Below are positions 320-5,334 of a stretch of 5,475 nt of DNA, piece after piece. A program made the position numbers and the translations under genes. Source of the DNA: a virus (Duplodnaviria > Heunggongvirae > Uroviricota > Caudoviricetes). The notes beneath the pieces were generated by a model. The model was given only the letters and a program-made list of their open reading frames with translations, did no database searches and had not been told where the DNA came from. Every line of letters starts with the position of its first letter. Position 1 is the first letter of the stretch. The stretch is from IMG/VR virus record IMGVR_UViG_2675903578_000013; one strand, written 5' to 3'.

Positions 320-1057
320 TCATTCACTCTCTTTCAAACCAGTTTTAACTGTTTGTGGTTTTGGGTAAGGCTGGACTTTGAATAGCTTTGTGTTAAGGCG
401 TTTTCTGGCTCTCTTGTCCAGAAACCGGATGTAACGAAACTGACGGAATTTATGAACACTGGCTCTGTCGATATTAGCCCGCAGATGTTCACCTCGCTGT
501 CCTCCTCGTTTGATTGCATTCTTGCAAATCTCGTGATACCACTCGCCATCAAGTTCATAGAATGTTGTTTCATGACTGCCTACATAATCAAAATTGCTTG
601 CCTGGTACACGACACCAAGACAGCCACAACGCTCATCTGCAAACGACTGAACCCACTGCACCTGCGGATAAAGTTGTCTGATTAGTTTGAGCGCGTAACT
701 GATTGCCCTTGATTCGGAGTTTCTCGGCATACAGTCATGCAGCCATAACCGGTTAAGCTCCATATATTCGCGGTTCTGCGTGCCAGTTACGACGCGTGCA
801 CCATTGTTTGGATTAAGGGCATAACCCCATTGCATTACGCCAACCAGCTCCCGTTCTGAAAATATGCCCAGATGAAGGTAGGAATTATTTACGAAACGAT
901 GGCTGTAATGTTTATTGACGACGACCAGCCGGGCCAGCCAGCAACTTATTGTCTCAACCCGTAACTCACGGGAGCCATAACCGACGATATTGTCGTTATA
1001 GTGAATAAGTTCAGGCGTGCTGATGATACGGGATGTAACTTGCTTTCTGTTCCCCAC
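320..1057 (-). CDS. mom: Mom-like DNA modification protein (anti-restriction adenine modification)
   Basis: The 310-aa open frame (320..1252) has its 5' end overlapping, in another frame, a gene for a Com-like zinc-finger protein, which is the arrangement of the phage Mu com-mom operon. I cannot reproduce the Mu Mom sequence from memory, so the family call rests mainly on this context. Start is uncertain: I place it at GTG 1057..1055, which has AAGGA about 9 nt upstream and overlaps the com 3' end by about 15 codons. The frame stays open up to GTG 1252 and ATG 1219, but those would overlap all of com. Stop codon TGA at 322..320. Confidence 0.65.
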
Positions 1058-1211
1058 GACAGGATTTCCTTGTGTATGTGGGGTGCTCTGTGGCGCTCTG
1101 AGATGTGATTTGATTGAGGGTTTTACAGCGCGGACATTTAACTTCCAGATAACTGAAGCTGGCTCGTGCCAGTAGCTTGTTACAATGTCGGCACCGTATG
1201 TTTCGATACAT
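1011..1211 (-). CDS. com: Com-like zinc-finger translational activator of mom
   Basis: ATG at 1211..1209 preceded by AGGAGG (1227..1222). The product [30 protein letters not shown]... has two CxxC pairs and closely matches my recollection of Mu Com (MKSIRCKNCNKLLFKADSFDHIEIRCPRCK...). The 66-aa size fits Mu Com at roughly 62 aa. The ORF-track entry (1011..1256) begins at a TTG; the internal ATG is the likely true start. Confidence 0.75.
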
Positions 1212-1300
1212 GGCCGCATAACCTCCTGCTTTGTTGTTGATATCTTTATCACTCAATCGATCGACAAAAACGATCGATTTGATTTATTTAATTGATACAA
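1212..1300 (-). promoter_or_regulatory. putative com/mom promoter and control region with clustered GATC (Dam) sites
   Basis: AT-rich region directly upstream of com. GATC at 1259-1262 and 1272-1275, both inside short palindromes (TCGATCGA, CGATCGAT), and a third at 1341-1344. In Mu, mom transcription depends on Dam methylation of GATC sites upstream of the promoter. I could not place -35/-10 hexamers confidently. Confidence 0.4.
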
Positions 1301-1467
1301 CAAATAACACGAAATGTCATTAGCGAAAATTTATGAGTTTGATCACTAATTTTAAACGGTGCTGTAACGCATAAGTGCTGAATGATTGTACATTTGAATA
1401 CCGCAAAGCAAACAAATCAACTAATTTATAGAAGTCAATTGGTTAATTGCCAGCGTAAGAGGCTGCT

Positions 1468-1761
1468 ATGGACAATCATGTAACGACGAGAAATCGAAAA
1501 ATGATTGAAAATGCGGAAATCTATAATGATTATTTTTCCGATTATTCAGATGCCTGCAAATACAGTTCGAGTGCGGGAGAGTTCATATGCTTCAACTTTT
1601 TTATTAAATCTTATGTTTTTCCTCCACAGCAAGAAGATGGAGGTGTGCCACCTCCTGAAATCACTTTGCACCGTATAGCCTCCGTCTCAATGATGGAGCA
1701 ACAGGCTAATGAGCTGTATAGCATTCTGGGAACGATTCTACAAAAGCGTGAATCGGACTAA
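1468..1761 (+). CDS. hypothetical protein (97 aa), divergent from com/mom
   Basis: ATG at 1468 preceded by AAGAGG at 5-nt spacing. A 97-codon open frame in AT-rich, stop-prone sequence. No family recognised; the C-terminal half (PPPEITLHRIASVSMMEQQANELYSILGTILQKRESD) looks protein-like. Confidence 0.45.
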   Translation: MDNHVTTRNRKMIENAEIYNDYFSDYSDACKYSSSAGEFICFNFFIKSYVFPPQQEDGGVPPPEITLHRIASVSMMEQQANELYSILGTILQKRESD

Positions 1762-2545: not shown

Positions 2546-3723
2546 TTACGCGTTATTCACTTCCACCACGATACTGTCAATCAGTACCGGGTAAGTCGCA
2601 TTTTTAGTGATATCGGTCACGCGCAACTTGTCTGCCGTAAACGTGCCGACCGGAGACTGCGACAGCATGAATGGTGTCCCGTCCTTACCATCAATGACCG
2701 GCGTCACCTCAATACTGTTGTTACCGGCAAAACGGAAGCCCAGCGTATGCCATTCGTTATTAAATGCGCCGAATGACCCCAGCTTCGTGTTCTGCGCCGT
2801 GTTTCCTTTGTGATACATCACGTTAAGGTCTGTGGCATCGCTCTGTACGTAGAACGATGCCAGCAGGTTATGACCGGCATTTCCTTCCAGAGTAACCCCT
2901 TGCGGCAGGGCAGAAACCGGCCAGTACAGCGCCAGTGCGTACTGATTAGCCGTAAGCGCGCCATCGAGTTTAAAACGACAACTGACAAGACCACCTTTAC
3001 CCAGCAGGTCCGCACCATTACCAGCATCATGCTCAAGGTACCAGGGGGCTCTTCCTGTTTCCTTGGTCAGTTTCATTGCCTTACCCCCGCTGGCTCCGGC
3101 ATCATCCACGATTTGAGCCTTGCCACCTCCGGCAGCCCAACCCTGTGGTGTCAACCGTCCTTCAGACTCAGATGCCCGGTAAGCAAATAGCGTACTCATC
3201 GTCGTGGTGTCTGCGGGTGGCGTGGACGGTTTTGATGGTGTATCAGGTGACGGCTTCTCATCCGGTGGTGTCACGGTCTGCCCACGCATCAGTTCAGCCG
3301 TGCGCCCTGCATGGAGCATAATAGCTGAGGCCAGACGGTCTGAAATGACGCCCCTGCGTGCCCATGAGCTGAAATGGCTGTCACGCTGTGTCGAAACAAA
3401 ACTGCCCTGGGTTCGGGATGCTGCACCGTAATACCCGACAGCCACAATATCCGGGTCTTCCGCCGGAGCATTCGTTGGCGTGCTCTGTCCATTCTCATCC
3501 GTCAGGAACGGTACAAAGAAAATTTTCTGTGCTTCCTTGCCTTTGTAGCCACCGTATACTGCCTCATATTTATCGGTGCCAGCGTTTTTCCAGTAATACG
3601 TGGTATCACCGCAAATCCACGGCACCGTGGTGGCATTTCCACTCACGCACTGCGCAGCAAGCGGAGCCAGGTCAGTTCTGAACTGCTGAACCATGGCCGT
3701 GAATAAACTATTATGCTGCTGGC
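2546..3723 (-). CDS. large hypothetical protein, C-terminal 392 aa; the 5' part is hidden in the N-run
   Basis: Continuous open frame from the N-run edge (3723) to stop TAA at 2548..2546. The translation has a globular region with Cys/His-containing segments (VPWICGDTTYYWKNAG ... HFSSWARRGV ... IMLHAGRTAEL), then a Pro/Thr/Ser-rich linker (TPPDEKPSPDTPSKPSTPPADTTT), then a Gly/Asn/Thr-rich C-terminal domain of about 210 aa. No family recognised by eye. The ORF-track frame reaches 4036 through the N's. Confidence 0.6.
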
Positions 3724-4021
3724 NNNNNNNNNNNNNNNNNNNNNNNNNNNNNNNNNNNNNNNNNNNNNNNNNNNNNNNNNNNNNNNNNNNNNNNNNNNNN
3801 NNNNNNNNNNNNNNNNNNNNNNNNNNNNNNNNNNNNNNNNNNNNNNNNNNNNNNNNNNNNNNNNNNNNNNNNNNNNNNNNNNNNNNNNNNNNNNNNNNNN
3901 NNNNNNNNNNNNNNNNNNNNNNNNNNNNNNNNNNNNNNNNNNNNNNNNNNNNNNNNNNNNNNNNNNNNNNNNNNNNNNNNNNNNNNNNNNNNNNNNNNNN
4001 NNNNNNNNNNNNNNNNNNNNN
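3724..4021. other. run of 298 N (unresolved or masked sequence)
   Basis: Literal N characters in the input. Confidence 0.98.
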
Positions 4022-4676
4022 GCAGTTTTTTGGCAATATGCAACCCCTGACCGACAGTCCCGTACTGGCCTTTTGCCAGATCAGCTTTCGGGTGGTTTAT
4101 CCCGCTCATATCCTGAACATCATGCAGGCAGTGGTCTGCCGGAATGATGTCGTTGTATGTACACGACGTACCGTTGGGCGTTACCGTACTGCGGCGTGCC
4201 AGTTGCTTAATNNNNNNNNNNNNNNNNNNNNNNNNNNNNNNNNNNNNNNNNNNNNNNNNNNNNNNNNNNNNNNNNNNNNNNNNNNNNNNNNNNNNNNNNN
4301 NNNNNNNNNNNNNNNNNNNNNNNNNNNNNNNNNNNNNNNNNNNNNNNNNNNNNNNNNNNNNNNNNNNNNNNNNNNNNNNNNNNNNNNNNNNNNNNNNNNN
4401 NNNNNNNNNNNNNNNNNNNNNNNNNNNNNNNNNNNNNNNNNNNNNNNNNNNNNNNNNNNNNNNNNNNNNNNNNNNNNNNNNGGGATTACCGGATACCGGC
4501 ATTACCCATAATGGCTCTTTCGTGCTGAAGCGGATCACGCAGTCTGCGAAGGTGATCCCCCCTTTATTACCCGAAGGGCGGAAAGGGCTTTCAATAAATG
4601 CCACCGTGCCACCGGCAACCTTGACTGAAAACTCTCCGGGCATGGCGGAGAGCATTTTCCACTTGGAGTCTGACAT
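4022..4676 (-). CDS. hypothetical protein, N-terminal part (a separate upstream gene or the 5' part of the large ORF); interrupted by an N-run
   Basis: ATG at 4676..4674 begins MSDSKWKMLSAMPGEFSVKVAGGTVAFIESPFRPSGNKGGITFADCVIRFSTKEPLWVMPVSGNP (4482-4676). The same frame is open across the 63 codons of real sequence at 4022-4211, on the far side of the 270-nt N-run. After the second N-run this frame stops at 3711-3713 while a different frame is open, so the gene either ends inside 3724-4021 or the gap length is not exact. Weak Shine-Dalgarno. Confidence 0.45.
4212..4481. other. run of 270 N (unresolved or masked sequence)
   Basis: Literal N characters in the input. Confidence 0.98.
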
Positions 4677-4749: not shown

Positions 4750-4781
4750 TTCAAAAAAGCGTCACGGTACTTTTGGTGACG
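4750..4781 (-). terminator. rho-independent terminator of the invertase gene
   Basis: On the minus strand: CGTCAC (4781..4776), 10-nt loop, GTGACG (4765..4760), then CTTTTTTG (4759..4752). The hairpin overlaps the last codons and the stop codon of the invertase gene. Confidence 0.5.
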
Positions 4782-5334
4782 GAGCTGGTGAGGCAGGAAA
4801 ATAACGATAAAGGGTGGAAAGGCCAATATCAAATATCAGTGCGATTTGTTTACGGGACTCGCCATTAGCCAGCAAACGGGCGATTTGCTCCCGCTCTTTC
4901 TCTGTCAGTTTCTGAGGTCTGCCGCCATGACGCCCCTGAGCACGGGCAGCAGCAAGACCCGCGCGTGTACGTTCAATAATGAGTTCCCGCTCCATTTCCG
5001 CCAGCGCGCCCATTATATGGAAAAAGAAACGTCCCATGGGAGTGGATGTATCAATATTGTCCGTAATGCTGCGGAAGTTAACGCCGCGTTGCCGGAGTTC
5101 TTCTGTTAAAAGGACAAGGTGCTGCATACTGCGTCCAAGGCGATCCAGTTTCCAGACCAGCAGGGTATCCCCTGGCCGGAGTCGCTTTAATGCGCGTTTA
5201 AGTCCGGGACGCTCCCTTGTCTTACCGCTTATTCTGTCTTCGAAAAACAGCTCACATCCTGCACATTCCAGCGCATTTCTTTGTAGCGCCGTATTCTGGT
5301 CATTTGTTGACACCCTGATATACCCAATCAGCAT
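4762..5334 (-). CDS. pin: serine site-specific DNA invertase, Gin/Pin/Cin/Hin family
   Basis: 190-aa product MLIGYIRVSTNDQNTALQRNALECAGCELFFEDRISGKTRERPGLKRALKRL...GDTLLVWKLDRLGRSM...MGRFFFHIMGALAEMERELIIERTRAGLAAARAQGR...LSTLYRYF matches my recollection of Gin/Pin along its whole length, including the catalytic-serine N-terminus (RVSTNDQ) and the C-terminal HTH. ATG at 5334..5332 with AAGGAA upstream. The symbol is a family-level guess; it could equally be named gin or cin. Confidence 0.9.
   Translation of the reverse strand: MLIGYIRVSTNDQNTALQRNALECAGCELFFEDRISGKTRERPGLKRALKRLRPGDTLLVWKLDRLGRSMQHLVLLTEELRQRGVNFRSITDNIDTSTPMGRFFFHIMGALAEMERELIIERTRAGLAAARAQGRHGGRPQKLTEKEREQIARLLANGESRKQIALIFDIGLSTLYRYFPASPAPSPKVP

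Follow-up and report, generated by a model that had tools for sequence, protein, structure and literature searches.

The DNA-modifying enzyme Mom is toxic, and the several layers of control placed on it in phage Mu are a textbook case. The region upstream of Mu mom is an OxyR/MomR operator with three Dam sites, which was reportedly worked out by Bolker & Kahmann 1989 and Hattman & Sun 1997. In E. coli agn43 (flu), a second system of this kind, the operator lies at and downstream of the transcription start.

OxyR is the established binder and repressor of agn43, where Dam blocks OxyR (PMC3764049). P22 gtr contains two GATC pairs, each exactly 13 bp apart; each pair is located within one OxyR dimer half-site, and Dam methylation of a pair abolishes OxyR binding (PMC2909390, Broadbent et al. 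2010). A gtr construct containing only the BC site, which overlaps the promoter and combines a half-site without GATC and a half-site with the pair, yielded 9 Miller units, compared with 596 when oxyR was mutated; the GATCs of the construct were shielded from methylation, and it was uniformly repressed and showed no phase variation (PMC2909390). The Mu C activator binds a 16-bp dyad centered at -43.5 (PMC2582627). This dyad, TTATgccccaATAA, is directly downstream of GATC III, and the Mu GATCs, as computed from the dyad center, are at roughly -56, -69, and -87. The agn43 operator of E. coli K-12 reads aaaacGATCaatatctattttatcGATCgtttatatcGATCgataagc; the best agn43 promoter, TTGTCC-17-TAGAAT, is just upstream of GATC-I, and the annotated 5' end of IsrC is on GATC-I.

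Genomic context of the com-mom operon

The window, i.e., the whole 5,475-nucleotide stretch of DNA analyzed here, corresponds to the right end of an E. coli prophage that is Mu-like and transposable. In comparisons of E. coli genomes, the shared homology ends at approximately positions 186 to 192, and the host genes beyond this point differ from genome to genome; positions 1 to 191 are IS66-family (ISEc8) DNA that abuts the prophage end. Repeated TTTGATAC(C/T) motifs are located just within the prophage end (186 to 300) and are probably the transposase end-binding sites of the Mu-like right end. The mom gene overlaps the 3' end of com (Table 1), and the com-mom operon lies directly downstream of a GATC pair, a Mu-type trait. 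Unlike in Mu, DUF1378 and DUF826 genes and an uncharacterized plus-strand ORF stand between the invertase gene and com-mom. Literature searches returned no account of Dam/OxyR control for this family of prophages.

Several other features were observed in the window and its relatives. Inverted repeats ATGATTGTACAT and ATGGACAATCAT (1382 to 1393 and 1468 to 1479) are 74 nt apart near the start of the plus-strand ORF, and a further inverted repeat (1473 to 1507) surrounds this start in the same intergenic region as the GATC pair. A tail-fiber gene (2546 to 4676; DUF6645 in relatives), which has two N-masked stretches (3724 to 4021 and 4212 to 4481), adjoins a gene encoding a Gin/Hin-type serine invertase (Resolvase plus HTH_7; 4762 to 5334). 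In the related prophage L009, RefSeq annotates a "tRNA-OTHER" (23848 to 23927) between the virion-morphogenesis and minor-head genes.

Table 1. Features of the com-mom region, with positions in the window (G1 to G3 and L088 are com lineages described in the text; PWM, score with the promoter weight matrix)
Feature	Position	Strand	Remarks
Perfect 9-bp inverted repeat AATCGATCG-N7-CGATCGATT	1255-1279		Both Dam targets inside; kept in G1, G2, G3, Mu, and L088
GATC proximal to com	1259-1262		Equivalent of Mu mom site III, agn43 GATC-III, and gtr GATC4
GATC 13 bp farther from com	1272-1275		Equivalent of Mu mom site II and agn43 GATC-II
Predicted OxyR dimer half-site ATCGtttttgtCGAT (consensus ATAGnTnnnAnCTAT)	1260-1274	-	Contains both GATCs; gtr precedent (PMC2909390)
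Predicted second OxyR half-site ATCAattaaatAAAT	1282-1296	-	Without GATC; 22 bp center to center from the first
Candidate promoter A	1292-1320	-	-35 ATGACA (1320-1315), 17 nt, -10 TATCAA (1297-1292); PWM 8.0
Candidate promoter B'	1237-1264	-	-35 TCGATC (1264-1259), 16 nt, -10 TATCAA (1242-1237); PWM 2.1, weak
Third candidate promoter	1356-1328	-	TTTAAA-17-TAAATT; PWM 10.7; window sub-lineage only; spacer contains GATC 1341
com Shine-Dalgarno AGGAGG	1222-1227	-	Conserved in G1
com	1011-1211	-	Zinc-ribbon translational activator of mom; Pfam Zn_ribbon_Com PF10122 (7.5e-13); RefSeq annotation
mom	320-1057	-	DNA adenine modification enzyme; Pfam Mom PF25680 (1.6e-77); annotation
ORF diverging from com	1501-1761	+	Window ORF without an assigned function

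A GATC pair homologous to the Mu mom sites

The preliminary description of this DNA placed two GATCs, 13 bp apart and within palindromes, approximately 50 to 60 bp before com, and all of this was confirmed. The GATCs at 1259 and 1272 start 51 and 64 nt ahead of the com start codon (ATG at 1211, minus strand), within TCGATCGA (1257 to 1264) and CGATCGAT (1271 to 1278), and the dyad that encloses them is perfect. GATC is underrepresented in the window, with 8 occurrences versus 15.9 expected, and no other 13-bp GATC pair occurs across the 41.6-kb prophage. The bare arrangement GATC-N9-GATC is only mildly unusual by itself, appearing in 13 of 200 shuffles of the window (6.5%) and in 44% of the whole-prophage shuffles, while the full ATCGATCG-N7-CGATCGAT appeared in none of 200 shuffles even with two mismatches allowed. 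A third GATC that the preliminary description grouped with the pair does exist (1341 to 1344, 133 nt upstream of the ATG), but it is probably not part of the element. It is confined to the sub-lineage with the window's upstream gene, being found only in relatives that have this ORF, and shows no OxyR-like sequence context. In the O157-type relatives of the window family, homology to the window stops at approximately 1320 or 1306 and GATC 1341 is absent, and it was rejected as a cluster member on this basis; it is probably unrelated to the operator.

In Mu and D108, the GATCs are 109, 91, and 78 nt before com, with spacings of 18 and 13 bp. Mu sites II and III read ATCGATC-ggtaataca-GATCGAT, and the window reads ATCGATC-gtttttgtc-GATCGAT; aligned in this way, the window pair is homologous to Mu mom sites II and III. 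The number of sites therefore does differ from that of Mu, as had been remarked earlier (two GATCs versus three), whereas the supposed difference in spacing disappears, the 13 bp of the window being exactly the Mu II-III spacing. Mu site I, located 18 bp farther upstream, is missing in the window, where the corresponding position reads GTTGTA and a 7-bp insertion relative to Mu is present. The gap between the palindrome and the com ATG is 43 nt in the window versus 70 nt in Mu. The similarity extends to a chromosomal gene, with the window core ATCGATCGtttttgtCGATCGAT identical to the agn43 OxyR/Dam operator core ATCGATCGtttatatCGATCGAT at 21 of 23 positions.

Conservation of the pair among com loci

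The 80 IMG/VR loci encoding Com relatives were reduced to 48 distinct com-upstream sequences, and the 13-bp GATC pair is kept in 39 of these, across lineages with unalignable flanks. In the window family (G1; Com identity, 94 to 100%), the GATCs are 64 and 51 nt before the ATG (70 and 57 nt in CI5, which has a 6-bp insertion), and in G2 (67 to 76%) they are 63 to 66 and 50 to 53 nt before it. The Chuche-like, integrase-bearing lineage G3 (57 to 74%) has three GATCs at 82, 64, and 51 nt, with spacings of 18 and 13 bp as in Mu, and the Mu-type L088 (59%) has GATCs at 122, 103, and 90 nt, with the pair followed by a C-box-like dyad. When representatives of five lineages were aligned on the pair, the 25-bp core was 74% identical and the flanks were 32% identical. 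The G2 core is identical to that of agn43 at 24 of 25 positions, and G1 and G2 have ATTAAATAAATCA in common at the predicted second half-site, their other flanks being unrelated. Within the arms, the GATCs are invariant while the adjacent bases vary (L051 and L079), which points to constraint at the level of DNA and Dam; one GATC of the pair is mutated in L055.

In the species-wide genome scan and the window family, the pair was found in com loci of Escherichia, Salmonella, and Citrobacter, and it was absent from those of Haemophilus, Rodentibacter, Pasteurella, Marinomonas, Acinetobacter, Desulfovibrio, and Firmicutes. Among the com loci scanned, the element is thus conserved in, and absent outside, the Enterobacteriaceae. 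Carriers of the predicted operator include Mu-like transposable prophages, those of O157-type strains among them, and integrase-bearing phages.

In three Chuche-like loci (L083, L086, and L098), the GATC cluster approximately 60 to 90 nt upstream of com has collapsed between GATCGAT direct repeats, leaving no GATC in L083 and L086 and one in L098, and the collapse puts TAGGCA 16 nt from a TATCAT -10 hexamer. They are natural operator-deletion variants. L098 is labeled "Vagococcus sp." but looks enterobacterial (GC, 0.48) and may be contamination.

Predicted OxyR operator

The GATC pair upstream of com is very probably a Dam-methylation-sensitive binding site for the host repressor OxyR. The OxyR consensus ATAGnTnnnAnCTAT-N7-ATAGnTnnnAnCTAT was scored across the window (9,598 placements; maximum score, 20), and positions 1260 to 1296, which on the com strand read ATCAattaaatAAAT-caaatcg-ATCGtttttgtCGAT, scored 13, the joint top value. 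The same score is 13 for Mu mom, 13 for gtr, and 14 for agn43, all of which are proven sites. The consensus is degenerate, and an unrelated position in the window (2433) ties at 13/20, so that the score is supporting but not decisive. The first predicted half-site is identical to the agn43 half-site ATCGtttatatCGAT at 13 of 15 bases, and the second fits the consensus at only 6 of 10 positions; together, they are predicted to form a full OxyR tetramer site. The GATCs at 1259 and 1272 thus both belong to the predicted OxyR-binding sequence (half-site 1260 to 1274), which combines a consensus match at the level of proven sites with homology to a proven operator. The Mu-like Dam/OxyR logic suggested in the preliminary description is well supported by the homology to Mu and agn43, the OxyR score, and the enterobacterial conservation, while its details on the spacing, the site at 1341, and the promoter are not.

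Promoter region and absence of a C-activator box

A sigma-70 scan of positions 1100 to 1600 returned no promoter on the com strand, and a weight matrix (PWM) based on hexamer frequencies yielded the three candidates listed in Table 1. Shuffles of the same composition reach scores of at least 8.0 in 87% and at least 10.7 in 20% of trials; no candidate rises above this AT-rich background. The block of candidate A is conserved in all G1 relatives, and this promoter would place the operator at approximately -11 to +26, which resembles the agn43 arrangement; read in reverse complement, candidate A has the form of a divergent promoter as well, TTGATA-17-TGTCAT. The -35 hexamer of candidate B' overlaps the proximal GATC, and its -10 hexamer is TATCAT in L012 and L026 and CATCAA in O157-type relatives. 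In G2 and G3, good -10 hexamers (TATACT and TATCAT) begin 11 nt past the G of the final GATC, which places the GATC pair over the -35 and the spacer; the G1 sequence at this position is degenerate. All of the candidate promoters would put the operator between about -45 and +61, and in every model, occlusion or a roadblock by OxyR is therefore plausible.

Among the G1 relatives, no other part of the region varies as much as the segment between the palindrome and com. A C-activator dyad (TTAT-N6-ATAA with a C-rich center) is not present in the window between the GATC cluster and the -10, and no C or G runs of at least 4 occur within 1212 to 1500. No T6 run like that of Mu occurs between the palindrome and the Shine-Dalgarno sequence, and the 19-bp spacer before a TAAGAT -10 was not found; TAAAGAT at 1247 to 1241 is similar to the Mu -10, but relatives do not conserve it. 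When Mu Plys, PI, and Pmom were compared with the upstream regions of the prophage's lys, I, and tape-measure genes, those regions were C-rich and the com region was not. The putative lys, I, and tape-measure promoters of the prophage carry a C-rich box like the Mu late promoters, while com-mom appears, as far as we infer from these comparisons, to be without the C-activator layer.

The cluster is 27 bp closer to com than in Mu and no C-activator box is present, and for these reasons, an overlap of the operator with the core promoter or with the early transcribed region is probable, in the manner of gtr or agn43, and the operator is probably not located upstream of the promoter as proposed by analogy with Mu. 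A transcription start upstream of the GATC cluster, which had been regarded as speaking against Dam/OxyR control, would be compatible with it because the agn43 operator is at and downstream of the start.

In the O157-type G1 relatives (L003 and L012 to L015), a hypothetical gene diverges from com, its start being 115 bp upstream of the com ATG, and the operator is inside the 114-bp divergent intergenic region. On the opposite strand, the conserved ATGAC(A/T)-17-TATCAA reads as TTGATA-17-(T/A)GTCAT, possibly a divergent promoter akin to Mu momP2, with its -35 overlapping the predicted distal OxyR half-site.

Proposed mechanism and alternative explanations

It is likely that OxyR binds 1260 to 1296 and silences com-mom, that full Dam methylation evicts OxyR, and that Com then activates mom translation. 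With both GATCs unmethylated, a tetramer of OxyR, a LysR-type regulator, would occupy the site, and as this site would overlap or abut the com-mom core promoter, RNA polymerase would be blocked and the toxic operon would be silent. Full Dam methylation of both GATCs would prevent OxyR binding and permit transcription, and the Com produced would activate the translation of mom, in this case, in comparison with Mu, with no separate C-activator box between the operator and the promoter. Two GATCs instead of three could discriminate more weakly than those of Mu, which counts against this explanation.

The perfect 9-bp dyad, located near a late-type operon, might instead be bound by a different protein, either the prophage's late activator of the C/Mor type or some other regulator of phage or host origin, with the GATCs being incidental. 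The prophage encodes one C-like activator, which is nearer to Mu C than to Mor, and L088 and gtr show symmetric changes on both arms (AATTGATC...GATCAATT), as expected of any dimeric binder. However, the same core works in K-12 agn43 without phage factors, OxyR being the established binder there (PMC3764049), and the Chuche-like integrase-bearing phages have the same pair. The C site of Mu is a separate dyad downstream of the GATCs, centered at -43.5 (PMC2582627), and the C-rich box of Mu and of the putative prophage late promoters is absent from 1212 to 1500, which makes binding by such a protein rather improbable.

Control that depends on Dam and not on OxyR, through SeqA on hemimethylated DNA or through methylation at the -35 or spacer acting directly on RNA polymerase, would make com-mom expression replication timed. 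Such control would suit two GATCs that are separated by approximately one helical turn and located in or close to the promoter, and the -35 hexamer TCGATC of candidate B', which contains a GATC. It is nevertheless quite improbable, for it leaves unexplained the conserved ATCG...CGAT context and the upstream ATTAAATAAATCA block, both of which fit OxyR half-sites, as well as the near identity to the agn43 operator.

The palindrome may also be read as a hairpin, either a plus-strand intrinsic terminator that stops antisense transcription through mom and com entering from outside the prophage end or, if the start is upstream, a stabilizing or attenuating stem-loop in the com leader. A scan flags 1255 to 1279 with the T-rich tail TGATTTATTT as terminator-like on the plus strand, the T-rich tail is present in G2 too, and the predicted RNA folds reach -11.6 kcal/mol on the plus strand and -13.6 kcal/mol on the minus strand (z of about -2.3 to -2.8). 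Two self-complementary CGATCG/ATCGAT sites fold by construction, however, and variants weaken the stem while retaining GATC (GATCA in L051 and GATCAATT in L079). A good T tail is missing from Mu and G3, the com strand has no U-run, and an Rfam search of 1000 to 2000 gave a noise match alone (IS102; E = 0.45). The hairpin, which explains neither the GATC invariance nor the enterobacterial restriction, was consequently ranked low and is very improbable. Chance clustering of GATCs in an AT-rich intergenic region, for which the frequency of the bare pair in shuffles could be cited, is hardly conceivable and is effectively refuted by conservation despite unalignable flanks, the absence of the full palindrome from the shuffles, and homology to proven operators.

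A possible portable module

The Dam/OxyR operator may extend beyond com-mom. The exact core was found in 59 IMG/VR loci, of which 30 adjoin com and several others have a third GATC 18 to 19 bp away. The sharing of ATCGATCG-N7-CGATCGAT by agn43, gtr, and com-mom suggests that the operator is a portable module, which could help in predicting other methylation-controlled prophage genes. In L143 (605 to 627) and L170 (1007 to 1029), the exact core ATCGATCG-N7-CGATCGAT, with a third GATC 18 to 19 bp away, is located between divergent genes encoding a D12-class N6-adenine DNA methyltransferase (PF02086) and a family-25 LPS glycosyltransferase (PF01755), possibly a further prophage module under Dam/OxyR control. 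L130, L135, L148, L149, and L165 have comparable cores with three GATCs. In L013 (E. coli 89-3156, NZ_CP027366.1; 510 to 926), the G1 palindrome and com are followed by an annotated DNA cytosine methyltransferase gene with no mom, as though one module had been exchanged for another while the operator and Com control stayed the same.

In the com cassettes of enterobacteria, the predicted Dam/OxyR layer is the conserved part of com-mom control, and the C-activator layer appears confined to Mu and a small number of relatives. A further reading is that in this lineage and two other enterobacterial com lineages, the promoter-embedded operator without a C-box constitutes an autonomous, phase-variable epigenetic ON/OFF module in lysogens, similar to agn43 or gtr. 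If this were true, DNA hypermodification, by mom or by the swapped-in cytosine methyltransferase, would be heritable and phase variable in lysogens and not strictly a late lytic function. This reading is unlikely because the single-site gtr construct showed no phase variation (PMC2909390). The predicted operator makes phase-variable Mom expression a testable question.

Comparison with Mu mom, agn43, and gtr

The window and Mu share the ATCGATC-N9-GATCGAT core, the 13-bp spacing, and the same com-mom operon; ATCAATTAAAT is just upstream of the core in both phages, and the overlapping half-site layout, ATnAATnAAATCGAT and then ATCG...GAT, is also the same. They differ in the distance of the cluster from the com ATG, and in Mu, the cluster is followed downstream by a separate C-activator box and by a weak promoter containing a T6 run, whereas the window has neither the C-box nor the T6 run.

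With agn43, the window shares the 13-bp spacing and the core with GATC-II and GATC-III. In contrast, agn43 has a third GATC 19 bp upstream, its regulated gene encodes an adhesin, and its phase variation is proven.

The OxyR(BC) site of gtr, which consists of a half-site with a 13-bp GATC pair and a half-site without GATC, has the arrangement predicted here. The -35 of the proven gtr promoter, TCGATC, contains the last GATC and is identical to the -35 hexamer of candidate B'; if B' is used, the window pair would be at approximately -45 and -32, compared with -46 and -33 in gtr. The difference is that a further GATC pair, within a second, activating site (AB), makes gtr phase variable, whereas the window is without a second pair. 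On these sequence comparisons, the com-mom locus of this prophage is very probably a new example of the known class of switches represented by Mu mom, agn43, and gtr.
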